Source of the DNA: Chiloscyllium plagiosum
Lineage: Eukaryota
Direction of reading: 5' to 3'
DNA length: 64,000 nt
Assembly: GCF_004010195.1 (NCBI RefSeq)
Contig: NC_057749.1
Location: 15,927,006 to 15,991,005 of the forward strand
Below, piece after piece: positions 7,730 to 59,258 of this stretch. Both the position numbers and the translations under genes were made by a program. Numbering within the stretch: the stretch's first letter is position 1; the number at the start of each line of letters is the position of its first letter. The notes under the pieces are model-generated. The model did not search any database, was not told the origin of the DNA, and worked only from the letters and a program-made list of their open reading frames with translations.

Positions 7730-7949
7730 TTCACATCTTTCTGTATCCACAGCAAGGCTTCTCTGCACGGTAGGCCCAAAGCAGACAGGTAGATTGATTT
7801 CAGTAAAGTGTGGTTTGAGGTCTCCGTTTTTTAAATTCTTCAGCTTTCGGGAATTCCCCATTTTGTCAAGATTTAAGACGTGGAAACTCACTTGTATCAC
7901 CTTGTCTGTCATTTCTGCACACCCACAGTTGCCAAGCAACAATGGTATT

Positions 7950-8167
7950 AAGCTGAAAATGTGTTGCTGGAAAAGCGCAGCAAGTCAGGCAGCATCCAAG
8001 GAACAGGAGAATCAACATTTTGGGCATAAGCCCTTCTTCCTGAAGAAGGGCTTATGCCCGAAACGTCGGTTCTCCTGTTCCTTGGATGCTGCCTGACCTG
8101 CTGTGCTTTTCCAGCAACACATTTTCAGCTCTGATCTCCAGCATCTGCAGTTCTCACTTTCTCCTCG
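7950..8167. mobile_element. Palindromic Penelope-related insertion (family 4) with hammerhead motif and 12-bp TSD
   Basis: 89-bp inverted arms at 7951-8039 and 8042-8130. TSD aacaatggtatt at 7938-7949 and 8168-8179. Confidence 0.8.
8038..8069 (+). ncRNA. Minimal type I hammerhead ribozyme motif (family 4)
   Basis: CTGAAGA-a-gggc(ttat)gccc-GAAACGTC. Stem I is weak in this copy. Confidence 0.6.
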
Positions 8168-9350
8168 AACAATGGTATTGAGGCAAGGAGAGACAGCAGT
8201 GAGAAAGCTACAATCAGTCACCACACCCTCAACAGAAGGGCAACAATGAAAGGATCCTTCCTCCTGAATAAATGACTGAACATGAAACTGACCAAAGGAT
8301 GCTCAGCTGTAATTAAAATGGAACAGAATGTGGTGGTGGAAACTGAAGATGCAAATGCTGTGATGAAGTTGGCCCCTTGCTTTTTAAATCCATGAGGGTT
8401 TCTGCTCCTGCACTTGCCCCTCCCCATGCTCTCCTGAAGCCCCATTCTAGTCCTATGGAACTGATAGGCCTTATACCTTACCCCTCTCCAGCCTTCCCCA
8501 CAAGAACTGGCTATCTGACCGACGGTCCATGCCAGTGTTGGTACCCCACGTGAATCTCCCCCACCCAGTTACCCTGACTCCCCCTCATCTCACCCCATTA
8601 TCATATTGTTTGATCCTCCAAAACTGATCCACCGTCCCAGAAAAAGTATCTCCACCTGTACCGCTCCTCGACCACTCCCTGTGGGAGCTTGTCTCACATT
8701 CCCACCACTTCCTGGGGAAAGAGGTTTCTCCTGAATTGCCAAATGGATTATCTTACATTAGGCCCTGTCTCCTCAGCGCTGGTGTTACCTACAAGTGAAG
8801 ATGTCTTCTCTATGTCTCCTGTATTCAATTCTTTACTGACCTTAAAGAATTCTAGCAGATCACCCCTCACTCATAACCCTAACACATCTCTCTGTTCCAG
8901 AGGAAAGTGCCACAGCTAGTTCAACCTCAGCTTTGGCATCATTCCACACGTGGAATCTTCATCACAGAATGTCGGCAGGTTAATCGACTGTAGGAAGCAA
9001 CACCCCAAGCTCTTGTGCACCAGAACTGCACAGCAACAGGAGCAGCTGCTGTGCTCAAGGTCTTACCACACAAGGAGTGGTAAAGGCTAACTGCTGCCCC
9101 AGCCAGGACCTTCCGATCAGAGTGACCCACAATGCTGCAACGGGGTGGGGGGGGTGGTGGTGTTCCTCATGAGATTTGGGGGAGAGATTTATGACAGACT
9201 TGCTGCCCCTCAAGTCCCTTTGGGGAGTTGCATTGAACATTAAGCACTAAGACTGAGAGAAGGAAGGAGGAGTACAGAAGCAAGCTGGTCTTTTTCAATT
9301 CCTGGTGCAGGGAAGGTGCAAAGTTCCAACCAGAAGTACCCATACAGTTA

Positions 9351-9720
9351 GGGTGGCACAGTGGTTAGCACTACTACCTCACAGTGTCGGGAACCTAGGT
9401 TCGATTCCAACCCAGGTTCTATTCCGACCGGGTTTGGACAACTGTCTGTGTGGAGTTTGCACATTCCCCCTGTGTCTGTGTGGGTTTCCTCCAGGTGCTC
9501 CGGTTTCCTCCCACAATCCAAAGATGTGCAGATCAGGTGAATTGGCCATGCTAAATTGCCCATAGTGCTCAGGGATGTGAGGGTTAGGTGTATTAGTCAG
9601 TGTAAATGGAAAGTAATAGGGTAGGAGGAATGGGTCTGGGTGGGTTACTCTTCAGAGGGTCAATGTAGACTTGTTGGACCAAATAGCCTACTTCCACACT
9701 TAAGGCATTCTATAATTCTA
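9351..9720 (+). mobile_element. HE1 (V-SINE) tRNA-derived SINE
   Basis: ggtggcacagtggttagcact (A box), ggttcgattcc (B box), V-core tgtgtggagtttgcacattc...gggtttcctcc, and a CR1-shared tail. Confidence 0.9.
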
Positions 9721-10239
9721 AAACACAAGAGAATTTGCTTTGTCCAATTTCTGGACACTGCAGCTACCCACAAAAACCCAAACATGACTGACTGTATCTA
9801 ATTTGAAACATGTCTCTTTAAAAACTTGCTAAAGACAGTCAGTGTGCATCTCACATTAATCTGGTTCATTTCCCCAAAATGCACAGTCTCACACCCTCTC
9901 AACCATGAGATAAATACTTGGAGAGACAGCGATCATTTCCAAAAGCACTAACTGTTCGCATTCTGCAGATCAGGTTTGGCCCAGTTTTTTCTGCTTTAAC
10001 TGCAGTTGGAAGCTTGGTTGTTGGCATGCAGTTAAATCGAAGCCACAGAAATAGAAAGCTGCTAGTTCTGCCCCCATTTTCGATTCTCTGCTGAAATGCT
10101 GCCTTTCTGATAAAGCTCTATAACTGGAGTATTGCCTTTCAAAGGAGGGGACAATTACTAGAGAACACACGACCTGCTGTGTCAGCCTTACTCCTGTAAC
10201 CTCTCAACATCTCAGTGTGCTTTACACCCAATGACACAC

Positions 10240-10455
10240 ATTTCCAATCGCAAGCTCCCACACAGGGTAATGTGACAGTGACCAAGAAATGTGTCCTTTT
10301 TTCGGTGTGAGGTTGATCGAACGATTAACATTGGCCAAGACACCAGAAGCATTCCCCTGTCCTTCCTCCAATCATCGTTCCCCAGAGGATCGTTAACACC
10401 TGCTGAGAACAGAGGCACCAGCTGCTGAGGCAGTGCAGTACTGAACCTCCAACAG
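10240..10455 (-). mobile_element. Old SINE fragment (Deu/SacSINE-like family) hosting the minisatellite
   Basis: Similar to copies at about 16010-16140, 42780-43140 and 54370-54950 (attggccaagacaccagaagcattcccctgtccttc). The family name is inferred. Confidence 0.5.
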
Positions 10456-10860
10456 CGCAGTGCAGACCCACCGGCAGTGCGGCGCTCCCTCGGTACTGAC
10501 CCTCCGACAGTGCGGCGCTCCCTCGGCACTGACCCTCCGGCAGAGCGGCGCTCCCTCGGCACTGACCCTCCGGCAGAGCGGCGCTCCCTCGGCACTGACC
10601 CTCCGGCAGTGCGGCGCTCCCTCGGCACTGACACTCCGACAGTGCGGCGCTCCCTCGGCACTGACCCTCCGGCAGAGCGGCGCTCCCTCGGCATTGACCC
10701 TCTGACAGAGCGGCGCTCCCTCGGCACTGACCCTCCGACAGTGTGCGCTCCCTCGGCACTGACCCTCTGACAGTGCGGCGCTCCCTCCACACTGGCCCTC
10801 CGACAGTGCCCACTTCCTCAGCGCTGACCCTCCCACAGTGCGGCACTGCCTCAGCACTGC
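10455..10860. repeat. 33-bp GC-rich minisatellite, about 12 units (cagtgcggcgctccctcggcactgaccctccgr)
   Basis: Directly visible; gives 11-aa periodicity in the overlapping ORF translations. Confidence 0.95.
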
Positions 10861-11299
10861 AAGGTGAGCCCTGCAGATTTGAACCTTGGGCAAGGCCAGG
10901 CTCTGCTGAGCCACCAAAGACTTCTCCCAAATAACCTTCCATATAAACGGTGATACTGTTGAAGCGTCAAATGACAGCTAACCCCCTCAGAACGTTTTTT
11001 ATTGAACCTATTTTTCCTAATCAATCTGCTCAGAAATGTCATTACACACCTCTGGCTCTATTGTTCTAGGGGTAGGCCCAGCTCTGCTGCAAGTGGGCAG
11101 GGAGTAATCTCTGGGGGTAGGACAGACAGGCTCTGATACTCTGGTCCAGGATTACTGAGAGACACCAGCCACTGGTTAATTGTGTTAGGGACAGTTTGTG
11201 AAGCAGGTTAGCAATTTAATAACGTTAACCAGGATGGCAGCCTCTGACAGAAGCTGCTGTGGAGTGGGCACTGGAATTCCGAGATTTTAGAAAATCTTA

Positions 11300-11465
11300 G
11301 TTTAAAATCTCACAACACCAGTTTATAGACCAACAGGTTTATTTGGAAGCACTAGCTCCTTCCTCAGGTAGTTGTGGAACACCTGATGAAGGAGCAGCGT
11401 TCTGAAAGCTAGTGCTTCCAAATAAACCTGTTGGACCATAGTTTGGCATTGTGTGATTTTTAACT
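11300..11465. mobile_element. Palindromic Penelope-related element (family 3)
   Basis: Arms ttaaaatctcacaacaccag...ggaagcactagct and agctagtgcttccaaataaacctgttgg...gtgtgatttttaa. Confidence 0.7.
11380..11414 (+). ncRNA. Minimal type I hammerhead ribozyme motif (family 3)
   Basis: cac-CTGATGA-a-ggagc(agc)gttct-GAAAGCTA-gtg, with stem I cac/gtg. Confidence 0.6.
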
Positions 11466-11646
11466 TGGAACAGGATCATAAGACACAGAATTTGTAGCAA
11501 AAGACTATTGTGTCATGCAACTGAAACTGAAACTTTAGAAAATCTGGCAGTGGAAAGGAGATGAGGACAGTTTCTAGGAGCCAAAGTTTGTAACTCAGGT
11601 TGAGGTTTAGGGTGTAGGTTTGCTAGCTGAGCTGTAGATTTGATAT

Positions 11647-11686
11647 CCAGACGTTTCATTACCTGGCTGGGTAACATCATCAGTGG
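11647..11686 (-). ncRNA. Minimal hammerhead ribozyme motif (family 1, minus copy)
   Basis: cca-CTGATGA-t-gttaccc(agcc)aggtaat-GAAACGTC-tgg on the minus strand. Confidence 0.7.
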
Positions 11687-11933
11687 TGACCTCCAAGTGA
11701 AGCGAAGCTGTTGTCTCCTGCTTTCTATTTATAGGTTTGTCCTTGATGGGGTTCCTGGGGTTTGTGGTGATGTCATTTCCTGTTCGTTTTCTGAGGGGTT
11801 GATAGCTTGAGGTGTTTTTATGTGCGGTTTGTATTGAAGACATTTTGGCAGTACCTGTTTTCTCAAACATTCATCAAGGACAAACCTATAAATAGAAAAC
11901 AGGAGACAACAGCTTCACTTCACTTGGAGGTCG

Positions 11934-11973
11934 CCACTGATGATGTTACCTAGCCAGGTAATGAAACGTCTGG
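11934..11973 (+). ncRNA. Minimal hammerhead ribozyme motif (family 1)
   Basis: cca-CTGATGA-t-gttacct(agcc)aggtaat-GAAACGTC-tgg; predicted cleavage after GUC at 11970. Confidence 0.75.
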
Positions 11974-12326
11974 ATATCAAACCTACAGCTCAGCAAGCAA
12001 ACCTACACCCTCAACCTGAGCTACAGACCTTCACAAACCTTGCAAAAACGTATGGGCGCATCACGCTACAACTTGCCCGAAGATGGGAAAGGAATGCCAT
12101 CCGAAAGAGTTCCACCCACAAACAACTGTACTTCCTGCATGAATGTTTGAGAAAACAGGTACTGCCAAAATGTCTTCAATACAAACCACCGATAAAAACA
12201 CCTCAAGCTATCAACCCTTCAGAAAACGAACAGGAAATGACATCACCACAAATCCCAGGAACCCCATCAAGGACAAACATATAAATAGAAAGCAGGAGAC
12301 AACAGCTTTGCTTCACTTGGAGGTCA

Positions 12327-12366
12327 CCACTGATGATGGTACCTAGCCAGGTAATGAAACATCTGG
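12327..12366 (+). ncRNA. Hammerhead motif (family 1, mutated copy)
   Basis: cca-CTGATGA-t-ggtacct(agcc)aggtaat-GAAACATC-tgg; two substitutions relative to the 11934 copy. Confidence 0.55.
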
Positions 12367-12894
12367 ATATCAAACCTACAGCTCAGCGAGCAAACCTACA
12401 CCCTAAAGTTTCTGGGAGAACATAACTGCAATACTGTGGCCACAAGCGACCCTCAACCAACTCTCTGCCCAGGGTAAATAAATAAACCACTCCCAGGATT
12501 AGACCATGCCCCCCTGCATGGCGTTCTCTGCTATGCTAACAGCCAATTGGAAGCTAAACCCGGGAATGGGTCTGAGATCCGGGCGGGAACTTGCCAGACC
12601 GGGAGCACATTCCCATTTGGAGCTCTGTGCCCCCCTCCGCACTCACCGTCTAATATCCAGAGTCAGTGGGTCAGCAAAAGCAGAGGAGGCTGCTCCTGGC
12701 CTCACCCACTCCCCACAGACTTTCCACTGGGAACCAAACCCGAAGCTGGGATGGAACAATCATTCAAAAGCACCACCCTGCTGAGCTCCCTGTACCCAGC
12801 CGGGGCTGGGGCTCTGGGACCAGGGCTCTGGGACCAGGGCACCTGCCCCTTTGTTTGTGTGAGAGGGTCAGCTCTGCTTTGGGATATCACACGA

Positions 12895-13248
12895 GGTGGC
12901 GATGGCTCAGTGGTATTATCATTAGATGAGTTTCTGAATTAATAGTCTAATGTCTGGGAAACCAGGTTCAAATCCCACCATGACAGATGGTGGAAATTTA
13001 ATTCAATAAAAATCTGAGCTTAGAGTCTAATGATGGCCATGTCCATTGTTAATTGTTGGAAAAGCCCATCTGTTTCACTGATATCTTAAGGGAGGGAAAT
13101 CCACCATCCTTATCTGGTCTGGCCTACATGTGACCCCAGACCCACAGCAATGTGGTTGACTCTTAACTACCCTCTGGGCAATTAGGGATGGGCAATAAAT
13201 GCTGGCCCAGCCAGTGATATCCACATCCCGTGAGTGAATTTAAAAAAA
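12895..13248 (+). mobile_element. tRNA-headed SINE (family B) sharing its 3' tail with LINE family B
   Basis: tggctcagtggt (A box), ggttcaaatccc (B box), tail gggcaattagggatgggcaataaatgctggcc, A-rich end. Confidence 0.75.
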
Positions 13249-13865
13249 CACTTGACATATCAAGAAGAGAGTGATGTCAGTAGAAACTCCCAGTCTGGCT
13301 GCATTCAAACATACACAGACACACACACACACACAGCTGGTACAAAGTGATGGACTCACTCTGACACTGTAAATACTGAGGTGCTCGCTTAGTGATTGAG
13401 GCTTCATTGAGACTCCGCTCAGATTTTCAACTCGTTCCACCTTTTAATATTAGGTTCTGTCAGACTTAGAGGAACGTGGGCTTGCTGTAACAATTCAAAC
13501 CTACAATCAGGAATCTATCGAAACCCTATCATTACTGCACATTACTCATTACTGGGAAATGGCACAGTGATCAGTGACAGCCCGGTGTTAGAGTCAAGCA
13601 GCAGCTGTGGAGATACAAGGTGCCCAGTGCTGGCACCAGGAAACCAGACACTCACCCTCATGGCACTCTGTGGGAGCTCCCACCTCCTCCCAGACACCCC
13701 CACATCTCACCGACCCTTTACAGAATACAGGATTTGTATTTACTGGCTCCAACTCCCCCACCCTCCTACTACCCCTAAATCTCTTTATACAGACAGGGGA
13801 GGGGGCTAAAACAGGTGGGAATATTGCCTTATATGGGGACCCAATGGTCAGAGTGGGTGAAAGTG

Positions 13866-13880
13866 GGAGAGAGAGAGAGA

Positions 13881-13934
<54 letters not shown>

Positions 13935-13936
13935 GA

Positions 13937-13973
<37 letters not shown>

Positions 13974-13995
13974 GGGGAAGAGAGAGAGAGAGAGA
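13866..13995. repeat. (GA)n microsatellite
   Basis: Directly visible. Confidence 0.95.
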
Positions 13996-14309
13996 GTGGG
14001 TAGAGATATCATACTGGGCCAACGGGTCAGGAATTATAAAAACAGTTAGAAGCAGAATCTCACGGTTTTGGCATTTTATATTCCTGGTCGATCACACCCA
14101 ATTCCCAGAGGTGACCTGAGCACGCAATCACCTACAATATTCTGCATGTGCCAAGCGACAAATCATCAACAAAGATATAAGTCACTTAGAAAAAACCAGG
14201 GTTATTAACAATTAATGACATCCCTCTTGGCACTTGAACCAATGAATGGAATGGGCACTCGGAGCAGTCAATTTTACTGCAGTACTTAATTAACCAAGTC
14301 TCAACCTCT

Positions 14310-14490
14310 TATGAGTGTGTAGGCGTGTGTATGCCTGTGCATGTGTTCGTGTGCATGTGTGTGTGGAGGGAAGAGAGAGAGAGAGAGAGAGGGGAGAGAG
14401 AGCAAGGGGAGAGATAGAGGGAGGGGGCGAGAGAGAGAGACAGACAGAGAGAGAGCAAGGGGAGAGAGAGGGGGAGAGAGAGCAAGAGAA
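14310..14490. repeat. Compound (TG)n/(GA)n low-complexity tract
   Basis: Directly visible. Confidence 0.9.
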
Positions 14491-14639
14491 AGTAAACTAG
14501 TGGCATTCCGGTTTTACCATGGAATCAGGGGTTCTTGGTGTTTACTCCAGTAAAAGTATCTCATTTGTAATTCTCCAATTGAGCAAAGATAAGAATATGG
14601 TTACCAGTGTCCAGAAATTGAACTGGACTCCCCACATAA

Positions 14640-15200
14640 AACAGCAGCTACTACAGCAGATCAGAGTCTAGAACTCCTCAAAGCCTGTCCACCACCAACA
14701 AGGCACAAGTCAGGAGTGTGATGGAATACTCCCCACCTACCTGGATGTGTGCAGCTCCAACAACACTCAAGAATTTTCTCACTGTCGAGGACAAAGCAGC
14801 CCTCTTAATTAGAACCATGTCCACAAGTATCTGCTCCCTTCACCATTGACACTCAGTAGCAGCAGTGTGTACCATCTACAAGACTCACTTCAGAAATTCA
14901 CCAAGTTTGCTTAGGCAGCACCTTCCAAACACATGACCACTTCGATCTAGGAGGACAAGGGCAGCAGGTACATGGGAAAACCAACCCCTAGAGGTTCTAC
15001 TCCAATACACTCATCATCCTGACTTGGAAGTAGATCGTTGTTTCTTTAGTGTCGTTGGGTCAAGATCCTGGAACTCCCTCCCTAATGGCATTGTGGGTGT
15101 TCCTAATCCCCATGGACTGAAACATGGCAGCTCAATACCCTATTGACAAACAGGGATGGACAATACAAACTGGCCCAACCAGTGATGCCTGTATTCCTGC
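14640..15200 (+). mobile_element. CR1/L2-group LINE (family B) 3' fragment
   Basis: KAQVRSVMEYSPPTWMCAAPTTLK...DKAALLI (post-RT region), followed by a SINE-B-like tail. Confidence 0.75.
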
Positions 15201-18200
15201 ATTACAATAAGTACTAGCCTTTCAAAAATAACTACCAGTCTGTAAAATGCTTTGGGGCACTTAGAGATTATGTAAGACACTACAATAATGCAACTTATTG
15301 TTGAAAGCTCAGGCCAGACTCTGCATTTCCAACATTTTATGCTTTGAATTTTCCTTACAAAGGGGCCTAATTTAAACAAAAAGATAACCTACTTTATTCT
15401 TCAAATGGTTAACCAGGATTCAAACAACTTGAAATTTATTTTTGGCTTGACATACTCTTGGTGAACCAGCCAGAAGATCCAGAATTCAAAAATAATTTAA
15501 ATCAATTATTCAATAATTACTGCAAATTAAGTGAGATTGGGACCATTTCTGCAGCTCTACTCTTGGAACCATTATCACTTGCACACTCCTGGGGAAGAGA
15601 AATTACATTTAGTGCAGTTTAAACACCATCCTTTGAAACACACTGTCTTGGCAACATTCTGACGGCTAATCGTGGAGGCTGTTTCAACAGAATAAAGCCT
15701 GAGGATAATTAGAGTGTGCTCAACAAACACTTCCAAGCACCAAACTGGTTGGCATTAACTGGACAATTGAATAATGCAAAAACACCCTTCTTCCTTTCCA
15801 TAGTCTCTTCTATTATTTCAAGTTAACTCACAATGCATTAAAGCTGATTAACTAGATTAATTAGTGACCCCCAAGATTCACTGGAACTGAAACGTTAATT
15901 GATTTCTCTCCACAGTTGCTGCCAGACCTGCTGAGCTTCGTCCAGCAATTTCTGTTTTTGTTTCAGATTTCCAACCTTCACAGTTCTTTCAGCTTTTTAC
16001 TTTTGATTGAAGTCATTGTTGCAACCAATTTGCATACATCAAGCTCCCACAAACTGTAATGAGAAACCTGATCAATTGATCTCTTTTTAAAAGCATTGGT
16101 GAACGGGAGAAAACAATGTTGGCCAGGTTTCAGGGAGGATCTGCTCTCAGCACAGTTGTTGGGTTTACTCAGTCTTTGCCCAAACGCCAGCATGAACTTG
16201 TGCAGAAGGAGACCATCTCCTGTGCACAATCAGGTAGGGGGTCACTCTCGCCACTTGGTTTTCCTGTTCTCTTACTCAGGAATGCTGAGAACTGTGGGTC
16301 GCTAACTCTGTGCAGAACAAGCAGGAGTCAGTGAGGACTCCTTACCAGAGCTGTTCATTGGATAAACCTCATGTCTCCAGGAATGTCCAAACCTGGGTTT
16401 TAAAAGAATGAAATATTGTGTGAGGGTTGGAGCAAGACGAGATCCATTCAGTTGAGAAAGTGTGAATCAGAGATGATTGATTTTGACATATAAAGAATGA
16501 TTGTGAACCTATGCTTGAATTTGCTGGGAGGTTCTCTCTTCGGTTGGTTTCTGTTGTTGGGGGGAGCTTGGGAGAGTTCAGTTAATTCGAAGCCAAGGGT
16601 CCTGAAATGGTGAAATCTTCCTGGATTAGAAAACAAAAAAGCAACAGCTTCAATATTGTCCTGAAATGCCAGGGAGTTGATATTTACTGCATGACAGCAC
16701 TGCTGTGTTTTCAGCTAAACTGTAATACTGCAATGATTTTACTCCACTCTGGCTTATTGCAGTGCACAGGAAATTAATCTTGAATTCCTGGAGACTCCAA
16801 GGCAACTCTGTAGAGTTGGCAACTCTAATTGTCAGTAAAAGTGTTGCAATCTTTGTATAGTTAGATGTAAAAGTCATCATATTGGCAAAGGAAAGGCGTG
16901 TTGTCAATTTTTCTGGCTGGTATGGCCTTTTGTTTTGCCTCGATGAAAGTTAACCTGAAATGTTAACTCGATTTCTCTACCCACAGTTTCTGTCTGACAA
17001 AGTGGCGGGAATAGAGGGCATTCAGCCCAGAGTCTGCCCTGTTTTTCAATGAGGTAATGGCTGATCCATACCTTAATTCCAACCTCATCTAGATTCCAAA
17101 ACATTGGAATCCTCAACTAATCAAACCATCAATCTCAGTTATGAAATGTTAATTAAATTGCCCAGCCTGTACAGGTTTACATGGGGACAGAGTCCCAGAC
17201 TACTACTTCTGGACTAGCCCTAATTCTAGTTATTAGTCTTTGTTCTGGCTTTGCAGCCAGAAGAAATAGTTTCTCTCTTATCTACCTTAGAAAATCCTTA
17301 ACTCACCCTTGATCTCCTGTTCTGACCTGGAGCGTTTTTTGCTGCTTTTTATTCAGCATTTGATTCATTGGCCTCAGGACAATACTTCACAATATCAAAA
17401 AACATTCAGAGGTCAAACAATTCAGATCATGATGACAAATTTTAAAAGGAATACCCCAAGTGTTAGCCTCCTGTCCCACCTAGAAACAAGGAGCCTTCGC
17501 ACTTTGCAGGATTCAGTGACTCGACAGTAGAATTAGCAAGATGAGGAAACGGAGTTATTCTTTGGCATTATTTACAGGAGCTGAACTAAACTGATGAAAA
17601 ACACAAATCCTTTCTTGCCGAAGACTGTGCAACATAAAAATAGATTCACAATCTTAATGGATGTGTTTGCGTAGGTAACAATTTATGAGATTGCACCTAA
17701 CTCACTTAACAGCAAGGAAGTAGCATTTTTAAAGAATGAACACAGCTAATTATATATCTCTACTACCATATTATATCTGACGATCTTTGACATTATAAAT
17801 TGGCAAAGCTATTCTGATTACTTAGAATATTAAGCATAATCTGTCTGAGCAAAGGGTTCAGAATGAGTTAATGATGCAAGCTTCCTGGCAGAAAGAAGTT
17901 TCCATTTAGCATTCATTGATTAAATATTTCTCACAGTTTTAATGCATTTGATCCTTGGATCTTGTTAATGATGCACAAAAAGTATTTGTATAAATGACAA
18001 AAGAGATAAAGAGGGAGACAGCAGAAACAAAGAAAGGGAAGGAGACAGACACACATTCATACTGTAGACAAACACATGCCACAGAAATTGAATCAAGGAC
18101 AACGGGTTTACAGGGAAAGCTATTTGCAACACCTAACTTGACCTTGAATTAAATCTCATATATTCTCAGTGTGACTGTTAGGATTCAGACACTCGTGTTT

Positions 18201-32593: not shown

Positions 32594-33074
32594 CTGTATT
32601 TAAAAATGCAGAGAAATCAAAGAAATCATTAAACAATGGAAACTCTCAAGTATGCATCACTGACAATCTAAAGAAAAGTCACTTCGGACTCAAAACATCA
32701 ATTGTCTTTCTCTGTCCACAGATGCTGCCAGACCTGCTGAGTTTTTACAGCATTTTCTGTCTTTGTTTCAGATGTCCAACATCTGCAGTACTTTGCTTTT
32801 ATATGCAGCAGTGCAACCTGCTCCACAATTCCCATTGATTTAGCTGTGAATTACTGCTACATTTCATGATAAACATGGCACCATTAGTGTCAGCCTGAAC
32901 TGTGAGACATATCCAGGCATACAACCATGGATCTCATCCATCTGCACTGGATATGCATCTGCAAAGAGCACTTTTAGCTGTATAACATTTTGGTGAAACA
33001 CTGTTGGCTATAGGTCTGTCATCAGTTGTCAGATCAGTGTGAGGTGAAGGATTCTGTTTTCAGTATTTCACAGG

Positions 33075-42194: not shown

Positions 42195-43538
42195 ACTCTT
42201 TCAAGGACAATTAGTGATGGGTAATAAATGTTGGCCTTGCAACATTCTATGAGTGAATAAGAAAAAAAATCACTAAACTTTGAATTTAATGAGCTCATTG
42301 CTAATGGAAAGCATTTACTTACAATTGTCATGAATATAATGTTTCTTGCAAATGAGACCGATTTCAAAGCTCCTAAAAACTTTGGTCAAATTAGTAAATT
42401 CTTTGAGAAGGGCAAAGACAATTAAAAGGTTTAAAGAGAATAATTTTTCCCAGGATCAAGGGGAAATCTGGTCTGGTAAACCAGTGGGGGAACAAAAGGT
42501 ACATTTAGATCTTTTGTGTCAGCAAATCAAGAGAGAATGAAATGTTCTTCAACAGAACAGCTGGTAGCAGGAATGCCTCATTACAGGATTAGTGAGCAAG
42601 GCAATCTTGCAGGACCATGTATAATTAAGATGTTGAGAATATGCTTGGCATTTTATGCAAAGGATTTACAAGTCAAGCCAAAGCAAATTATTACAAACTG
42701 CTGGGTGCCATGAGTGCAAACTCTAGAAGCTTATTTAATTCAAATTTTAAACTATTCCCTTAAAGAAAGACTTAAAAGACTTCCATTTATATTGTATCAT
42801 TCACAATCCAGTGAAGAACATCTCCTTTAGCAGTTAGTGTAGAATGACATCCCAAAACAGCAAAGTGCCAGTGACCAGGTAAATCTATTCTAATTAAGTT
42901 TGAGGGAACAAACATTGACCAGAATACAGAGGAGAACCTGCTATTCTTCTTGGAATCGTGCTTTTGGACTTATCACATCCATTTAATGCAGATGGGGCTT
43001 GGTTTACTTATCTGAAAGAGAGCTTCTATGACAGTATAGCACTCCTTCAAATGCTGCACTGGGAATGTCAGCCTGAGTCCTGGGCTCCAGTCTCTGGAAT
43101 AGGAATCAAATCTGTTACTTCACACTCAGAGCTACTGACAAAAACATCTAGTTCATTATTCAAGGCTGAGATGGACAGATTTCTGTTCTATTGGGGAATG
43201 AAGGGATGTGGGGAGTGGAAAAGTGCTTTTGAAACAGGAGGTTAACAATGATCACAGTGAATGGTGAATCATGCTCATGAGGGCATTCAGTCTATTTCTT
43301 ACATTACATTTTTGCTTTTAAGAATTGTGAATGAATCTGGAACACATCAGAACTTGTTTGGGGAGCAGGTTTATTTTAAAGGGCAAGCCAATGCAAATTT
43401 CCAAACACTTATAATGCAGGTCAGCTCCGAATTAAAAAGACAGAAGTCACACGACACCAGATTACAAAGTTTGTGAGAAGATTTGTAGCTCGGGTGCTCG
43501 TTGTTGTGGTTCTGTTCGCCGAGCTGGGAATTTGTGTT

Positions 43539-43578
43539 GCAGACGTTTCGTCCCCTGTCTAGGTGACATCCTCAGTGC
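43539..43578 (-). ncRNA. Minimal hammerhead ribozyme motif (family 2, minus copy)
   Basis: gca-CTGAGGA-t-gtcacct(agac)aggggac-GAAACGTC-tgc. Confidence 0.72.
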
Positions 43579-43804
43579 TTGGTAGCCTCCTGTGAAGCTA
43601 CCAAGCACTGAGGATGAGTGCCATGCCTCTAGGAATTCCCTGCCAGAGAACAGATCCACAGATTCAATCATAAGCACATCGACCTGGACACAATATACCG
43701 GCCACTGCAATGGACAGCTGGAACTGACAACCAGAAGCGGCAGATTCAAACCACTACAAATGCCGGAGGAAAGATCACAGAAGCGCTTCATAGGAGGCTC
43801 CCAA

Positions 43805-43844
43805 GCACTGAGGATGTCACCTAGACAGGGGACGAAACGTCTGC
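43805..43844 (+). ncRNA. Minimal hammerhead ribozyme motif (family 2)
   Basis: gca-CTGAGGA-t-gtcacct(agac)aggggac-GAAACGTC-tgc. Confidence 0.72.
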
Positions 43845-44837
43845 AACACAAATTCCCAGCTCGGCGAACAAAACCACAACACCAGATTACAGTCTAGTGG
43901 ATATATTTGAAATCATAAGCTATTGGAGAACAGTCTTCACCTGACAAAGGAGCAGCGCTCTGAAAACTTGTGATTTTAAATAAACCCATTGGGCTATAAC
44001 CTGGTGTCGTGTGACTTCTGACTTTGTCCAACCCAGCCCAACACTGGCACCTCCGCATCATGGCTACCATCAACACCACAAATTAAAAAGGATAAAAGGG
44101 AAGTCAGGCAACTAAATCAGGTGTGTTTGGCCAATGCCAAATTTGGACTTTAAAAGTTGTGGAAGGAAGGAGAAAGCTACAGGTCAATGGAGGTGTGGAG
44201 TTTCGTAATTCTAGGCCCTTGATAAAGAATGAGTCTGCATAATGGCACGATCTAGTAGGAGTTCAATTGTTCCAGGAGAAAGAATTGAGTATTATATGCT
44301 CCTGATATCTTGCAGTTTGGTTTCTCAATTAAAAAGAAATAGACAACAGTGAACAAAATAAAAAAAAGTGTTCCAATATACTGCCAACTCATTCAGTCAC
44401 TATAAAACAGGATGAGACAGTTTTTTATACTGTAGTTGTTTTGTATATAGAGGTCATAAGTTACACTTGAGGTGAATTTTATTAGCTCTGAGTCCTGAGC
44501 AAACTTCAGTTAACTTACACCAGGGAAAATGTTACAGGAGCTTTATAATAACTGAGATTGTTTATATGGAGGACAACAGATGGTGAAAACTGCGTTGTGG
44601 TAATATATTGCAGGCTTGAACATACTGAACAATCCATCCATATATAATTTTGAACAGCACATTTCATGATGAATACAAACGGGTCACAGAGGACAGGCAA
44701 GGCTTCCATGAACAATTTCTAACAAAGATCTGCTAATCACTGTTTTGGTAATTGTTGAGAGACAAAACATTTAGCCACAGGCAGGGAGGGGAAAATCATC
44801 CTTCTTAGTATTTGATTCAAGATTGACTTTAGGAAAT

Positions 44838-49409: not shown

Positions 49410-49622
49410 AACTAAGTCACCATACTCCCCAAGGACCGTAGGGTTGCTCGCTCATTAGACAGAAATGACTGGTGATAGTGGTTTAACTTAGGGGTCACCA
49501 CACCTCAGGCAAGGGGAGGGGTGGAGAAGGAGAGTCTTGCACAGTGCAGAAATTGAATGTGCACTGCTGGCATCACTCTGCATCACAAACCAGCCATGCA
49601 GCCAACTGAGCTAGCTGACCCC
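49410..49622 (-). mobile_element. SINE family C
   Basis: Reverse complement of 37463-37667. Confidence 0.65.
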
Positions 49623-51608: not shown

Positions 51609-51629
51609 AAAAAGTTGTGAGGGAAATGC

Positions 51630-51830
51630 AGAGAGCGGTTCATGTGTGGAATGAACTTCCAGAGGAAGTGATGGTTGCTGGTACAGGTACAACATTTAAA
51701 AGACATTTAGGCAAGTACATGAATAAGAAACATTTAGAGGAATACGGGCCAAGTGTAGGCCAGTGGGACTAGTTTAATCTGGGATTATGGTTGGACTGAA
51801 GGGTCTGTTTCCGCACTTTATGACTCTACC
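51630..51830 (+). mobile_element. CR1 3' end
   Basis: WNELPEEV motif and tail. Confidence 0.8.
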
Positions 51831-52044
51831 GGTTTCTATTAAAACATCCTTCTAATCTTCAAATGCTTATCTAATCATTCCTTAAATACATCTAACCCAT
51901 TTATCTCAATTTCGCTATGTGGTAACAAGTTCCACACTCAGCCAGCATGGAACAAAAATTTCTCCTGAATTCCCTTGGATGCATTAGTGACTATTTTATG
52001 TTTATGGCCCTTACTTTTGGTCTTCTCCACAGTGGAGGTATCTT

Positions 52045-52360
52045 AGAGTCAGAGATGTACAGCATGGAAACTGACCCTTCAGTCCAACCCGTCCATGCCG
52101 ACCAGGTATCCCAACCCAATTTAATTCCACCTGCCAGCACCTGGCCCATATCCCTCTAAACCCTTCCTATTCATTTACCCATCCAAATGCCTCTTAAATG
52201 TTATGCCTCTTAAATGTTGCAATTGTACCAGCCTCCACTACATCGTCTGGCAGCTCATTCCATACACATTCCACCCTCTGTGTGAAAACGTTGCCCCATA
52301 GGTCTCTTTTATATCTTTCTCCTCTAACCCTAAACCTATGTCCTCTAGTTCTGGATTCCC
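52045..52360 (-). mobile_element. CR1 (HER1-like) 3' end
   Basis: SRTRGHRFRVRGERYKRDL-GN-FTQRV; contains a 16-bp tandem duplication of atgcctcttaaatgtt. Confidence 0.9.
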
Positions 52361-53933
52361 ACCTCGCATCCTTTTCTATTTTAACTACCTCTAGAAGGAC
52401 ACTCGCAATGACTTTGTTTAAACAAAAAGACAAGAATTCCAGCTAGTTCTGCCTTTCCAGATAATTATAACCATCACTATGACTGAAATTCCTGACCTTC
52501 ACCACCCACTTTCCATCACAGACCAATGGAGAGCAGCAGATCTGACTAAAATTGGCGAACTTGTAAAAAAGATAAAACACTGGAGACTGATCAGGCAGCT
52601 TTCTTAGTCTGCCAGGGTAATTCATATTGCAACTATATTTTGAGCCATCGGGAAGCCTATTTAAAAAAACCCTCAGATCCTCATATAGAACTTGCATTCA
52701 GAAATTTATTTTTACATGGATCTTATGCTCCCATCTATATGGTTATAATTTCATGCTTATGACTCTATGACTTACCAGGCTATTTCACAGTCAATCCAGA
52801 AAGAAAAAGTGATTTGCTTTGAATTAAACTCTGCAAACTTTCTACTTAATAACTCATCCCTGAAATGGATTTAGCGTAGAATGTTTCTCTGGTTACTTTG
52901 CATTCTACTATTGATTTCGACTTAAAACGTGCAGGACTGTGCAACTATCAAAACGATCCATTTTGATCGTTTATCATCAGTTTTTATTCCATTCATTTCT
53001 GGATAAAAGAGAAATATATTTTAGTTCGATAGCTGACGGGGACAGGAGGGAAAAATTGTCCACATTGCTTGCTAACAAATCCTTGCCAACAGTTAGTGTA
53101 ATTTCCAACAGCTCAAAGCCTTCTGGGGAGAAAAGGCCAGGCAGACAATCGAAGTAAAACAAAAAGTTCCTTCCTTGAGTGCCAAACTCAACTGCAAGAG
53201 CCTGCCACTAAACGCTCCAAAGTTGCCGACATAAAGTGTCGGAGGTGGCCAAACATCTCCAAAAGACTACAGCATGTTGTTTCCGCCAGTTATAAATCAG
53301 ACTTTCAATTACACAGAATAAAAATGCTTTTTAAAAATGTTAATAATTAGAGAAAGTTGCAAGTGCCAGAAGACTGAAATAAAAATGAAGATGCTGGAAA
53401 TACATAACAGCTCTGTGGGTAGCTGAAACAGGGACAAGTTTCTATCTGTGGTGCAGACCCTCTATTGGGATTGTTTCTTGTTTGAAGGTCTGAGCCAAGG
53501 ATATTAACTTGACTTCCATAGAGGTTCGATTACTGAAATCATAGCTTGTCATTATTTTTGCATTTCCATCATTTCCTGTTGACAATTAGCATTCTTAAGC
53601 TTTGGCAATCATTGATTTGTGATTGTACGGTAATGAAATACAAAAGAATTTCTGTTAGTGGTGCAGTCTGACTTTTAACCTGTGTTAGTAGTGAGGGTTT
53701 CTTCTATCCATAATCCAAAAACACAAATCTCAAGAGCACCACCCGTCTGCAGGCAGTTAAAGACACGGGGGAAAATAAATGCCCCCTTAGCTCTTTGTAA
53801 CCCCTTCCCCAATCGCCCATCTTTTATTGCAAAGCTCACTTGGTCCAAATCTGCAAGCTGCATCATAGCTGCAATGGCCTGAAACAAGATTCATCCAAAG
53901 CTAACCATGCAGCAGTTAAGGTGCAGGTGATAC

Positions 53934-54113
53934 CGTAGAGGCAGTCGATATCATCCTGCCCAGAGATCAACCACTTCTTGAAGAGGCGAATGTGATACGA
54001 GCACTGATGTAGATGCCGGGCCAAGGCACCATCAAGGGCCAGGTTCTGTGCGAAACTGTTATCAGCTGAAAATCGCCTCAGCAACTGCGCCACACGATGA
54101 TTGTCCAGTAAGT
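53934..54113 (-). CDS. PPIP5K1: PPIP5K1 coding exon (180 nt, phase 1-1, probable cassette): (D)LLDNHRVAQLLRRFSADNSFAQNLALDGALARHLHQCSYHIRLFKKWLISGQDDIDCLY(G)
   Basis: Acceptor gctgttccctag| and donor TACG|gtatca. It is an open, CpG-rich, frame-preserving exon between two recognisable PPIP5K1 exons. Confidence 0.82.
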
Positions 54114-54223
54114 CTAGGGAACAGCACCAATGGTAAAAAAAACAAAATACAAACAGCAACAAAAAAAAAAGGACACAATTACTATCATTACCACAATTAT
54201 TATTTCAAAGGAAGAAGCATTCG

Positions 54224-54322
54224 TAAGAATCTCAAACAGCAAAGAATGAAACATTTGTAGGAATCTCAAACAGCAAAGAATGAAACATTTCTAAGAATTT
54301 CAAACAGCAAAGAATGAACTAT
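54224..54322. repeat. 34-bp tandem repeat, about 3 copies
   Basis: ta(a/g)gaat(c/t)tcaaacagcaaagaatgaaacattt(g/c). Confidence 0.9.
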
Positions 54323-56619
54323 ATGAGGAGAAAAAGGAACATATATATGTCTTAAAATAAAATTCAGATAGCAAAAAGATATTTGCATTTACTTACTGTC
54401 TGATTATGTCACTGAAAATGTCTCAAAGTGCATCACAGTGAAGTGCTTTTGATTCATGTCCTATATTAGCAAGCATGGTAGTCATACTTTGCAATCAAAA
54501 TCTATACAATTACATTCTGGTTAGTTGAGGAATACTGACTAGGTACCAGCAGAACTTTCTTTTTTCTTTTACCAGTGCTTTAGAGTCCTCCAACATTCAT
54601 TTGACCAGACAGCTCATCAGAAAGATGGCGCCCACAGCAGTGCAGATCTCCCATTGCGCTCCACTAGAGTGTCAGACTGGCTTTCATGAGGCTGATTGTG
54701 GGATAAATATTGACTAACACGAAGAAACAATACGTACTTTCTTCAGATTAATGTCCAGGGGGCTTTTGAATCTGACAACAGAGCCTTGGTGCAATGCTTC
54801 ATCAGAAACACTGGACTGAAGAAGGTGCAGTAATCCTTCAATACTACGCTGGAGTGTCAGCCCAGATTGTTTTGCTCAAGTGCCTGGAGTGAAATTCAAA
54901 CCCACAGTCTTCTGACTCAGGTGAATGTTCTAACAATTGAGCCAGGGCTCAAACTAATACACTTCGTTGGATGCCACAATTACACTTCTGAAAATACAGA
55001 CCACCTTTCCATCAAGAACATAAAGAGATCTTATTTGTCATGCCATTCTTAACCCTGCAAACATCAAGTCAGACCTGAACTGGACGACAGTGAGATCTGG
55101 AGCACTGTGCAATGACTTCGGGACAAAGATTAGGTGCGCTGACATGGCACATCTGGCCGATTCAGAATGCATCTCAACCCTGTAACTTGAGAATATTTTA
55201 CTTACTTACTAAATGGAATACACTTCCAATAAATACATTAATCACTCTACCAGTGTCATTAGATTTAATCCTTAGGGCTAGTTTCCTCTTTAGGGGTTAA
55301 TTATATACACAAACCCTTTATTAGTGAGACATCAAGCAATCTACAGCAGGTAATCTCAACACAGGCGACTCTTCCAGAGAAAGCGAGCTGATTGAAACTA
55401 AACAAGGAAATAGCTATAGATGATGGCCTCAACATGATATTGAAATAAAAACTCGCTTAGGGTATGGAAGAAAGACTCATGAACTATCTATCAACTTCTT
55501 TCAACTCTTTAAAAATCCAAAGATAGAGGACTACGATGAATTGGTTGAAGGAATATGCTCCTGATTGTAGACAAATGGGATGGGGATAACGTGCCTAATA
55601 TATGATGAAATCATTTTCATGTCAAAATTTATGATGTCTTAATTCTTATAATCCCCAACAAACGTTCATATGTTGCATGTATATTGCTCTCTCATCCAGA
55701 AAAGCAAGTATATGACTGGATTTTGAGATTGCTGCACACTGGGAATGCAAATATTTTCTTTTTGGAAGGCAATCTTAGCTCTCACATAAACAGGATGCTC
55801 ACTTTTGTCTGTCAAATTTCTTCTGTGACTCAAATGAACAAAGACAAATGCTGTGGGGTGAGAACATGAAAAGTTACAATCTATGCAAGCACACCCTAGT
55901 ACGGTCTGACATGAAGACAACGAGAGATTTAGGTGGGAGGGAAAGTGATAACTTGTGGTGAAAAAATCTATGTTCAAATTATGCAGTTATCTAGAATACT
56001 GGGGCCCCTGAGTTGAAGAGAGTTTTAAACAAATTTCCAGATAGTAATACCAACAAGAAGTGTGAGTGAGACAATTTGTTTAAACAAAAGGTAAGTAGAC
56101 AATTCACTCTTCCAAGTTTTACTTTTCCTTGGTCCATCATTCACATGAGAATTAGCAAAGACATGTACTCCACAGACTGGAGAGACATTATACGATTGAA
56201 TGAGAGCAGTTAATATGCATTCTTGTTGACTTGCTGGTGTTATGTATTAAGCTAAACACCACTTCTGGGAAGTGATATACAATTATATAATAATTATTCT
56301 GACTATTTTTTCCTCAATTAATTTGATGGCAAAATGACTGCTGACAGCATTCAAATGGATTGCCATATTTTCACTTCTACTGTTGGTAGATTGTTAATTT
56401 GATTTCATCTCCTGTCTGATGAAGAAAAACGTGTTTGAAGATCTATTGCATTTCTTTTGTTGTCTACCCTTTCATAAAGACACCATTATACTGGGGCACG
56501 GTCAGCTAGGCTCCAACACCCCTCACTCCTCCAAGTGACGTATAGTGAGAGCCTGCCTGTCCACGTGAGGTCTGAGATTTGACTGATTACTGCCCTCCCC
56601 CAACTTCCTAACAGCATGT

Positions 56620-57210
56620 CACCAATGGTGCCAGTCATTTGGACCCTTGAGCTTGTTCTGCCATTCAATAAGATCATGACTAATTTGATTACTCCACATC
56701 CACAACCATCTGCGATAACCTTTTACCTTCTTACTTACCAAGAATCTAACTAGGACATAAAAGTATTCAAATACCCTGTTTCCACCACCTTTTGAGGAGG
56801 TGTTTCAAAGATTCATGAACCTCTGAGAAAATCTTTCCTAATCGCTGTGTAAGTCGATAACCCTTTATTTTAAAACTGTGATTCCTGGTTCAAGGTTCTC
56901 CCACAAGACAAAGCATTCTTTCCCCAGCTAGTCAGGATCTTATGTTTCAATCAAATCGCCCCTCATTATGCTAAACTTCAACTGATACAAGCTTAGTCTG
57001 ACCAAATTGTACTCATGAGAAAACCCACCCATTATAGATATCTGTCTGTAAGACCTTCTTAGATGCTTTTAACACATTTTCATCCTTCCTTAAATGAAGC
57101 AACTAATACTTGACAGACACAGTACTTCAGATGTGGTTTCACCAATGCCTTGTATAAATGAAGCATAACCTCCCTATTTTTGTATTCAGTTTCTCTTGCA
57201 ATACATTCTA
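56620..57210 (-). mobile_element. Old CR1 LINE fragment (continues after the nested insertions to about 59640)
   Basis: EYKNREVMLHLYKALVKPHLKYCV and CPMGMVAKLTDDTK (degenerate FADD region). Confidence 0.7.
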
Positions 57211-57216
57211 TTAGAA

Positions 57217-57513
57217 TAATAGAATCTCTATGGAGGCAGGCCATTTGACCCATTGAGTCCACACCAACCCTTTGAAGAGCATCCCACCACGGTCCCCGCC
57301 ACCCCCCACCCGTAACCACTCAATTCCCCAGACTAATTCACTAAGCTTATACATACTGCTTGACTATGGACAATTTACTATGGCCAATCTGCCTAACCTG
57401 CACAACTCTGGACTGTGGGAGGACGCAGGTCACTGGTTGCCCAAGGCGGGAATTGAACCCAGGTCCCTGCCGCTGTGATGCAGCAGTGCTAACCACTGAG
57501 CCACAGTGCCACA
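57217..57513 (-). mobile_element. HE1 SINE (degenerate, internally deleted)
   Basis: Reversed tRNA head at 57450-57513. Confidence 0.75.
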
Positions 57514-57647
57514 CAGGTTTTCTAACTACTTGCTATTGCAGAATATCAATCCTTGGGATTAATATGCAAGAACTTGCTGCATAAGATAATGTGCTTTTAA
57601 AAAAATTTCTTGTCAAAGTGGACAATTTCACCATTTCCCACGTTATA

Positions 57648-59258
57648 TCATGGTTGTGGGAATGTTTGCCGAGCTGGGAAGTTGATTTGCAGATGTTTTG
57701 CCCCCTGTATAGGTGACACCTTCGGTGCTTTGGAGCCTCCTGTGAAGCGCTTTGGTACTCTCTCTTCTGGAACTTATTTGCTTCAGTTCCTGCTGCTTCC
57801 AGTTCCAGTTCAGTTCTGGTCGTTCGTTATAGTAGCTGGTATATTGGGTCTAGGTCTAAGTCCTTGTCGATGGAGCTTACGGATGAATGCCATGCTTCTA
57901 GAAATTCTCTGGCTGTCCTACATTTAGCTTGTCCTATGATCATTGTGTTTTTCCAGTCAAATTTGTGCTCCTTGTCATCTGTGTATAGCTACTAGGGACA
58001 GGTGGTCGTGATGTTTAGTGGCTAGTTGGTGTTCGTGGATGCGGATTGCTAGTTGTCTGCCGGTTTGGCTAAAATAGTGTTTTGTGCATGGAATCTTCTT
58101 GCATGGAATCTTCTAAATTACGTTTGTCTTGCACATGATGGGTATAGGGTCTTTTGTCCTGGTGAGTTGTTGTCTGAGCGCGGCTGTCGGTTTATTGGCT
58201 GTCATGGATCTGAATAGTTGGAGAAGTCTGGCTGTCAGTTCCGAGACGTTTTTATATTAGGTAGAGTGATTAGTGTGTTGTGTCATGGCATGTCCATGTC
58301 ACGTTGTTTGTCTATTAGGCATCTGTGAATGAAGTTGAAGGGATATCCATTCTTGAAGACTCTGCAGGAGGTGTTCTTCTTCTTCTCTTCGCAGGTTGGG
58401 AGTGCTGCAGTGTGTTGTAGCTCTTTTGAACAGGGTTCTAATGCAGCTTCTCTTGTATACGTTTGGGTTGTTGCTGTTATAATTCAGGATCTAGTCAGCG
58501 TGCGTGGCTTTTCTGTACACTCTGGTGGAGCATTCACATCCAGGAAAGGGAATTGATTGTTGGTTTCCTCCTCTCTCATAAATCTGATACCTTGAGCATG
58601 GTGTTCTCAATTTCTGTTCTCTCAGTAATTACAAAAGTGTCATTCACACATCTGATCCAGAATTTGGATCAGATTTGTGGGAGGGTTGTTTGTTCAGTCT
58701 TTGCGTCACTGTTTCTGCTATGAGCCCAGAGAAGGTTGATCCCATAAGTGTCCCATTGATCTATTCATATATTTGGTTGTTGAATGTGAAGTGTGTTGTC
58801 AAGTACAGGTCTAATAGCTTGAGCGCGTGCCCTTGTTGATAGGTTCCCCATTGTGTTGGCTGTTCTGCTTGCCCAGGAGGTTGGCTATTGTCTCTCTGGC
58901 TAGATTTTTGTCAATTGAAGTAAATAGTTCCGTTACAATGAATGAGACCATTGCTTCGTCCTTGTCTTGATGTTGCCTAGGAATTGCTATGACGTCTATA
59001 TGGCGTGTTTGGATTGACTAATAGGATGTTTCAGTTTTTGTTGAAGTTCTTCTGCCAGTTTATGTGATGAAGCAGGAATGGAACCAAATAAATTCCAGAA
59101 GAGACAGTACCACAGCGCTTCACAGGCGGCTCCAAAACACTGAAGATGTCACCTAGACAGGGGACAAAATATCTGCAACTCAACTTCCCAGCTCAGCAAA
59201 CATACCCACAACCATGGCAACTGGCACCAGAGCTACAAATCTTTACGCAAACCTTGAA
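57648..59258 (-). mobile_element. Degenerate Penelope-like retroelement (family 2): RT and GIY-YIG endonuclease remnants with an inverted pseudo-LTR at the right end
   Basis: Minus-strand remnants DEAMVSF-VTELFTSID, INGTLMGS, WIRCVNDTFVI (RT) and HYFSQTGRQLAIRIHEHQ...REFLEAWHSS (GIY-YIG). pLTR copies at about 57648-57750 (-) and 59115-59258 (+). Confidence 0.88.

Follow-up and report, generated by a model that had tools for sequence, protein, structure and literature searches.

The sequence under study is a stretch of 64,000 nucleotides from the shark Chiloscyllium plagiosum (assembly GCF_004010195.1, contig NC_057749.1, positions 15,927,006 to 15,991,005 of the forward strand), referred to below as the window. 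It contains five insertions of the Penelope-like element (PLE) type, which belong to three lineages and carry motifs resembling hammerhead ribozymes. A first-pass annotation had described four Penelope-related families in this stretch, each with a minimal hammerhead. Its four motif sites were confirmed, with the CTGANGA core starting on the plus strand at 8040 (family 4), 11383 (family 3), 11937 (family 1) and 43808 (family 2); the positions 11934, 43805 and 11380 given earlier lie 3 nt ahead of the cores at 11937, 43808 and 11383. The number of families was reduced to three lineages, since families 1 and 2 share the end of an open reading frame (ORF), the 3' region and an alignable ribozyme motif. 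These two families are designated PLE-A and family 4 is designated PLE-B; family 3 is non-coding. A BLAST comparison within the window, together with a covariance model, revealed two inverted partners (11650-11683 and 43542-43575, both on the minus strand) as well as decayed copies at 12322-12371(+), 57684-57733(-), 59132-59181(+) and around 43938(+), all absent from the earlier list. Most of the copies in the window are decayed, and most genomic copies are dead relics.

The same layout was found in all four motifs: CUGANGA, one additional base, the helix II hairpin, GAA, A-CG-U or A-GC-U, and then a base other than G, after which a few bases are complementary to those located just ahead of the core. 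The core CUGANGA...GAAA with a base other than G at position 17 (H17) is present at the four cited sites and their two inverted partners, and is lost in four decayed copies. The presence of one extra nucleotide after CUGANGA in all four families, as claimed previously, can be read from the sequence; families 1 and 2 have U as this unpaired base between A9 and position 10.1, and families 3 and 4 have A. In a set of 133 parsed instances the extra base occurs in nearly all variant groups, and two groups include parses that do not have it. Helix II is closed by a G10.1-C11.1 pair in family 2, in family 4 and in the majority of family 3 copies. Family 1 has G.U at 10.1-11.1, as does the family 3 copy of the window, which carries G.U pairs where other copies have G-C. 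It had also been proposed that stem III is always reduced to a self-complementary tetramer, and this holds for all families (AGCU in family 3, ACGU in the other three); helix III is absent, and the palindromic 15.2-16.2 positions would permit a dimer. Contiguous helix I comprises 3 bp in families 1-3. For family 4 it is mostly 2 bp long; one subfamily has 4 bp, and a length of 6 bp is confined to some of the dyad junctions. In the window copy of this family it is limited to 2 bp (C-G and U.G) because the dyad centre has been deleted.

The motifs are far more frequent in the window than would be expected by chance. The loose pattern CTGANGA-N5-30-GAAA gave 17 matches against 7.25 +/- 2.71 expected, a number not reached in any of 100 shuffles. 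A full descriptor, demanding a helix I of at least 2 bp, a helix II of at least 4 bp, palindromic 15.2/16.2 positions and H17, identified four sites, at 8040(+), 11383(+), 11937(+) and 11650-11683(-), and found no site at all in 200 dinucleotide-preserving shuffles. Families 1, 3 and 4 were thus recovered by the descriptor. The site of family 2 does not pass in strict form because its helix II contains an A.G mismatch.

The insertions themselves consist of arm pairs arranged head-to-head, in which only one arm runs into a tail of 35-40 nt. The target-site duplications (TSDs) of the four younger insertions match at 12/12, 12/12, 11/12 and 16/17 bases, and the oldest pair is flanked by a weak repeat (9/10). 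Across the genome, flanking direct repeats of 8-16 nt were present in all 24 distinct family 4 copies. Of 29 distinct family 3 places, 22 show the tail on a single side and none on both, and in the remaining seven it was not detected. The sequences of the dyad centres vary between copies, and the dyads were formed anew at each insertion. According to the literature, PLEs show an inverted 5'-truncated copy at their 5' end and a tail of 30-40 bp that often occurs at one end only (Craig et al. 2021, PMC8557442), and the PLE enzyme cuts and extends both target strands, with reverse transcription from two adjacent internal sites (Frangieh et al. 2024, PMC11167929). The insertions in the window carry this published PLE signature, and not that of a short interspersed element (SINE) or a miniature inverted-repeat transposable element (MITE). 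The position of the motif in the terminal region of a GIY-YIG element was confirmed for families 1, 2 and 4, family 3 having only the insertion signature. Based on the anatomy, the ORF links of families 1, 2 and 4 and the mode of insertion, the earlier proposal of minimal type I hammerheads of the Penelope kind is upheld: the motifs are probably (at about 0.8) minimal type I hammerheads (min-HHRs) in the terminal non-coding region of PLEs of three lineages.

Families 3 and 4 form near-perfect palindromes that match on both strands, with minimum free energies of -161.9 and -69.4 kcal/mol, and could accordingly be regarded as foldback or MITE-type DNA transposons in which the likeness to a hammerhead arose by chance. 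This origin is extremely improbable and was rejected on the basis of the flanking duplications, which vary from 8 to 16 nt, the tail of 38-40 nt, which is found on one arm and never on the other, and the variable dyad centres. It is also contradicted by the existence of monomers and long non-palindromic copies, by the same motif and 3' region following a GIY-YIG ORF (locus L098) and by the absence of descriptor matches in the 200 shuffles. A SINE was likewise rejected, as no tRNA-like head was present: no tRNA-like structure was found in the region 7800-12600 or in three further loci (L104, L107 and L109), and no Rfam match to 5S or 7SL was obtained in the window.

For PLE-A, the hammerhead regions of families 1 and 2 align without gaps. 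The ORF of family 2 in the window ends with ...KHIDLDTIYRPL about 100 nt ahead of the motif, and the end of the same ORF in genomic copies of family 1 reads ...KHIDLDAIYQPLRK; the hammerhead of this lineage is located approximately 100 nt past the stop codon and 45-100 nt from the 3' end. A GIY-YIG-like stretch at the end of the ORF scored 15.4 bits, under the Pfam cut-off of 22.6, and a reverse transcriptase (RT) fragment with YIDD near the ORF end in one genomic copy (L004) scored 21.1 bits for RVT_1, under the cut-off of 29.6. RVT_1 is among the precomputed domains of longer PLE-A homologues in sharks and flukes. The nearest relatives of the PLE-A and PLE-B proteins are uncharacterised proteins of orectolobiform sharks. 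No Pfam family was assigned to any of the 22 stop-to-stop frames of at least 120 amino acids in the window. The two inverted arms of the family 2 composite (43502-43598 and 43785-43881) are 97% identical, and its ORF end was compared with PLE-A copies. The TSD of this composite (17 nt with one mismatch, CAC[G/A]ACACCAGATTACA) resembles a family 3 arm, and the composite is nested in family-3-like sequence, with inverted repeats of family 3 type at 43368-43464 and 43967-44025. The two decayed family-2-like arms further downstream are separated by 1,266 nt (57800-59065).

The family 1 locus contains a 393-nt unit present in 1.36 copies, with motifs at 11937 and 12330, and it could be interpreted as a retrozyme without long terminal repeats (non-LTR retrozyme), in which cleavage at the two hammerheads, spaced by 393 nt, would free a unit RNA for circularisation and for copying by a PLE enzyme. 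Such elements, with a mean consensus of 363 bp, are described for one chondrichthyan in a 2026 preprint (10.64898/2026.07.22.740005). However, the second motif at the locus is decayed (ACAU, with one helix II pair lost), and genomic copies share with the unit only its positions 337-393 and 1-176. Since only this terminal part is shared, the 393-nt unit represents a one-off internal deletion in an ordinary pseudo-LTR arrangement. Tandem units each with an intact hammerhead, by which retrozymes are recognised, were not found at the locus, which holds a single 1.36-copy unit, and the retrozyme explanation is considered quite improbable.

Family 4 had been regarded as a tiny free-standing family. 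Instead, its 95-135 nt are the 3' terminus of a Neptune-like PLE (PLE-B). In L098, a motif of family 4 type is located about 160 nt past the stop codon of a GIY-YIG ORF, the end of which consists of a C-x4-C-x2-C linker followed by a GIY-YIG domain (22.9 bits, cut-off 22.6). Longer homologues of the protein carry both RVT_1 and GIY-YIG. A C-x4-C-x2-C-type linker is given as a mark of the Neptune and Nematis clades in Craig et al. 2021 (PMC8557442), and the assignment of PLE-B to a Neptune-like clade is inferred from this match. In 20 loci picked from the first 100 listed pattern matches, and chosen to span the variants, the motif was found in long copies with unrelated upstream sequence, in 5'-truncated monomers and in inverted dyads. 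Its occurrence in these three settings shows that family 4 is not a separate tiny family.

The window copy of family 4 was aligned with 23 other distinct copies, the 30 loci concerned representing 24 distinct places. In 12 of these 24 copies (L040-L066) the TSD ends with TTAA or TTAAG beside the tail-less arm, which may point to a target preference of the endonuclease. Five short stretches of 25-34 nt elsewhere in the window (4258-4289, 5523-5556, 5594-5618, 15917-15948 and 32721-32752) match the 3' portion of a family 4 arm at 87-92% and are perhaps extremely truncated copies or members of related families sharing the 3' region. At another locus (L108:380-520) a tailed family 4 monomer starting 1 nt before C3 is inserted in the 3' region of a family 3 element, which shows the relative age of both families.

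Family 3 had been described as tiny and non-coding. It is indeed non-coding, with neither an ORF nor a tRNA-like head found. The full form of about 290 nt (monomer in L109) is larger than described, and the 110-nt palindrome of the window is a rearranged short dyad. The long form has a sharp 5' end, with the same query start in nearly all of the 40 scored out of 1,031 candidates (95-97% identity), and its 3' layout is that of PLEs, with the hammerhead, about 50 nt and a tail of about 40 nt. A piece of the 5' region in the window insertion was recognised by reading against loci L103 and L104. One arm of this insertion has a 14-nt deletion, a rare but recurrent event for which seven exact matches were found in the genome. 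The genome holds 3,454 family 3 dyads with both arms full and none with both arms deleted, and the deletion is found on either arm relative to the tail; its use as a subfamily marker was rejected on these grounds. The deletion (window 11354-11362) takes out precisely one arm's helix II hairpin, with short GCT repeats on either side, and recurs in different family 3 sublineages, so that it looks like slippage across the hairpin. At 4336-4402, a 67-nt stretch with a 34-nt inverted match inside matches the left arm of the family 3 insertion, together with its left flank, at 91% and represents another partial copy. A few pairs of family 3 motifs are arranged tail to tail (plus then minus, about 30 nt apart, e.g. 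at about 0.92 Mb of contig C1), opposite to the usual head-to-head orientation.

The claim that stems change compensatorily between families was partly confirmed. For PLE-A, seven distinct sequences with ten pairs gave 70 pair cells, of which 95.7% are standard pairs against 30-41% with the partners slid. Between the homologous families 1 and 2, two of the ten pairs change on both sides (C-G/G-C in helix I and U-A/C-G in helix II), and the covariation score was reached by 2 of 500 shuffles. The stems of family 3 (helix II GGAGC/GCUCC with a 3-nt loop) and family 4 (GGGC/GCCC with a 4-nt loop) are unrelated to and unalignable with those of families 1 and 2; they are parallel instances and not covariation in the strict sense. 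A covariance model (CM R1) built from seven sequences of families 1 and 2 recovered all seven sites of these families in the window. The features of the five insertions are collected in Table 1.

Table 1. Hammerhead motifs, insertions and flanking repeats identified in the window.
Feature	Position	Strand	Basis
Family 4, left TSD AACAATGGTATT	7938..7949	.	Exact 12-nt direct repeat with 8168-8179
Family 4, head-to-head insertion: inverted arm, direct arm, tail	7950..8167	+	Self-inverted match 7951-8130, 92%
Family 4, hammerhead: helix II GGGC/GCCC, 4-nt loop, ACGU, C17, helix I 2 bp	8040..8067	+	
Family 4, tail of ~38 nt on one arm only	8129..8167	+	Right side only in nearly all copies
Family 4, right TSD	8168..8179	.	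Exact 12-nt repeat
Family 3, TSDs	11286-11297 and 11534-11545		Exact 12-nt direct repeats
Family 3, insertion: short palindromic dyad and inverted piece of 5' region	11298..11533	+	Aligned with 29 other loci
Family 3, hammerhead: helix II 5 bp, 3-nt loop, AGCU, A17, helix I CAC/GUG	11383..11411	+	
Family 1, flanking 12-nt repeat, one mismatch	11569-11580 and 12407-12418		
Family 1, inverted 5'-truncated copy	11603..11874	-	95.5% inverted match to 12139-12407
Family 1, hammerhead on inverted arm, intact	11650..11683	-	Descriptor; CM R1 69.2 bits
Family 1, direct copy: 393-nt internally deleted unit x1.36, pseudo-LTR	11872..12406	+	Direct repeat 11872-12011 = 12265-12404, 94%
Family 1, hammerhead, intact: helix II 7 bp, ACGU, C17, helix I CCA/UGG	11937..11970	+	CM R1 74.9 bits
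Family 1, hammerhead, decayed: ACGU to ACAU, one helix II pair gone	12330..12363	+	CM R1 and sequence
Family 2, composite: inverted arm with tail, then direct arm with last PLE ORF codons	43467..43874	+	
Family 2, hammerhead on inverted arm	43542..43575	-	CM R1 66.6 bits
Family 2, hammerhead: helix II 7 positions, one A.G mismatch, helix I GCA/UGC	43808..43841	+	
Family 3, decayed arm; core to CTGACAA, AGCT to AACT	43938..43986	+	
Family-2-like decayed arm without tail, hammerhead core lost	57649..57799	-	CM R1 41.5 bits at 57684-57733
Family-2-like decayed arm running into tail; GAAACGUC to AAAAUAUC	59066..59216	+	CM R1 46.3 bits at 59132-59181

For the estimation of abundance, exact pattern matches were counted per strand in the searched genome (3.56 Gb), with the reversed pattern as control. 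The pattern CTGANGA-N10-24-GAAACGTC, corresponding to the ACGUC form, gave 69,199+68,922 = 138,121 matches against 235+256 = 491 for the control. The first 100 listed matches comprise 93 of family 4 type, six of family 1 type and one of family 2 type. For the AGCUA form of family 3, 21,459+21,339 = 42,798 matches were counted against 52+59 = 111. The earlier suggestion that this shark genome hosts a high-copy set of such elements is in agreement with these counts, which amount to about 181,000 intact motifs in three lineages.

Several results weigh against the identification of the motifs as minimal hammerheads of PLEs. Helix I, with 3 bp in families 1-3 and usually 2 bp in family 4, is shorter than the 4-5 bp of the published min-HHRs. 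The Rfam hammerhead models gave no match in the window at the gathering score or at E<=10; the 13 weak Rfam matches obtained there are all unrelated to hammerheads. This silence is expected, because the motifs have no helix III. At the genome level, model RF00163 gave no match, with only 73 of 409,411 candidates scored and 14 control genomes equally silent, and is uninformative. CM R1 assigned just 8.5 bits (E=4.3) to family 4 in the window and did not list family 3 at E<=10, and therefore lends no cross-family support. No autonomous partner was found for family 3. For a transcript across both arms of a dyad a single hairpin of -161.9 kcal/mol is predicted, and dyad copies are therefore unlikely to act as ribozymes. 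Cofolding of two copies with ViennaRNA does not model a hammerhead dimer and was not used as evidence. Finally, the predicted cut site lies at the centre of family 4 dyads at 88 loci, against 392 for a downstream control and 5,674 for the 5' edge of the motif, and exact 1.1-to-1.1 junctions occur in just two of the first 50 listed cut-site-centred dyads. The 5' ends of the insertions are thus not enriched at the predicted cut site, which speaks indirectly against cleaved RNA as the template. This absence agrees with the dispensability of hammerhead cleavage for PLE insertion in vitro, as reported in PMC11167929.

The family 4 dyad centres concentrate 4-5 nt upstream of C3, and among the first 50 listed 5'-edge loci the centre strings are mostly GAAT/ATTC with no or one extra base. 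At the same three test positions PLE-A gave 3, 3 and 1 loci. The hot spot is therefore not a general property of hammerheads, and hammerhead structure as its general cause was rejected. The pile-up of 5' ends a few bases upstream of the motif, which is seen in two lineages, suggests a defined short template RNA. It is possible, though rather unlikely, that families 3 and 4 retain the hammerhead-like block not for self-cleavage but, perhaps, as the 5' end (a core-promoter or 5'-terminal module) of a short transcript running to the RT start sites; the abundant copies of 95-135 nt would then be run-off cDNAs, and the RNA would be expected to start at the A of AUUCCUGAAGA. The GAAT/ATTC centres represent the pattern expected of run-off at a fixed RNA 5' end, and the excess at the motif edge (5,674 loci against 88 and 392) points in the same direction, as does the dispensability of cleavage in vitro (PMC11167929). 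Longer family 4 copies read TCATTC at the pile-up point. This word resembles an initiator motif. Penelope of D. virilis is described as having a TATA-less promoter inside the element, together with a downstream element of ACGTG type (PMC2377424), which makes a short transcript from the pile-up point a testable idea. On the other hand, short family 3 dyads end 0-25 nt upstream of the motif and show no initiator-like word, the bases upstream of the putative start would be lost in daughter copies, and the ACGT block is displaced by about 2 nt from the position that a fly-type downstream element would need.

Under the preferred identification as PLE-borne minimal hammerheads, the insertions may be explained by a mechanism that follows published PLE biochemistry. 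The endonuclease would nick both target strands, and both would be extended on the element RNA, with reverse transcription beginning at either of two nearby internal sites. The expected outcome would be head-to-head inverted arms with a tail of 35-40 nt on one arm and TSDs of 8-17 nt. For family 3, a PLE enzyme presumably does the copying in trans, and the hammerhead of the copies stems from their source elements. A further, unlikely possibility concerns the Neptune-like lineage and family 3, where the block of 4-5 nt, minimal hammerhead, about 65 nt and tail would be a self-contained mini-retroelement, its hammerhead-like part being conserved as a 5'-terminal or core-promoter module and not for self-cleavage. 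If true, a short RNA starting just upstream of the hammerhead would be copied to its 5' end on both target strands, and the dyads would arise by pairing between the 3' ends of the two run-off cDNAs. This could account for the presence of the block in more than 10^5 copies despite 5' ends that are not enriched at the cut site. Both 5'-end results bear on the question of what the ribozymes do for PLEs.

Among known systems, the motifs resemble the min-HHRs in the pseudo-LTRs of metazoan PLEs (Cervera and De la Pena 2014, PMC4209133): shared features are the core, an additional base separating positions 9 and 10.1, the G10.1-C11.1 pair, the absence of helix III and the palindromic 15.2-16.2 positions. 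As in that study, several consensus families per genome have different but paired stems, and the motifs are mostly solitary or form close pairs on opposite strands, the hosts including fishes and other lower vertebrates. They differ in a helix I of 2-3 bp (4 bp in one subfamily), in the helix II of families 3 and 4, which has 4-5 bp where 7-8 bp were reported, and in number, the approximately 181,000 intact motifs being 20-45 times the counts given there for the coelacanth (about 4,000) and Xenopus (about 9,000). No shark is named among the min-HHR hosts in the consulted parts of that paper. Dimer cleavage of min-HHRs has been reported in work cited by a review (PMC6765202). The insertions resemble those described for PLEs (PMC8557442, PMC11167929) in the head-to-head arms, the one-arm tail, the variable TSDs and the heavy 5' truncation. 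In contrast to these descriptions, the truncation point is concentrated at the 5' edge of the hammerhead in two lineages, giving rise to thousands of palindromes of 100-200 nt; such a concentration is not described in the consulted parts of these two papers.

Kinship to the terminal region of PLEs, a non-autonomous nature, the possession of a hammerhead and occurrence in one chondrichthyan are shared with the non-LTR retrozymes of animals (Cervera and De la Pena 2020, PMC7229834; 10.64898/2026.07.22.740005). Retrozymes are arranged in tandem, their type I hammerheads are canonical and their circular RNAs abundant, whereas families 3 and 4 occur dispersed, as monomers or as inverted dyads, and their motif has no helix III. 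The schistosome retroposons Sm-alpha and Sj-alpha (PMC6765202) are likewise short, very abundant and non-coding and carry a type I hammerhead, but they have a promoter head and active canonical ribozymes; in the shark elements no tRNA-like head was found and helix III is absent. Literature searches on hammerheads and on Penelope in sharks yielded no account of these families, which may nevertheless be listed in the supplementary tables of the 2014 paper or the 2026 preprint; hammerhead-bearing PLE derivatives are reported from one chondrichthyan (Li, Clavereau and Pollet 2026, 10.64898/2026.07.22.740005). The finding is a correct observation of a kind in print since 2014, made in a new host and on a very large scale, and its earlier interpretation was partly correct. 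Its main value is descriptive, with about 181,000 intact motifs far exceeding the few thousand of coelacanth or frog, and two modest additions to the known systems are this scale and the lineage-specific hot spot of 5' ends.

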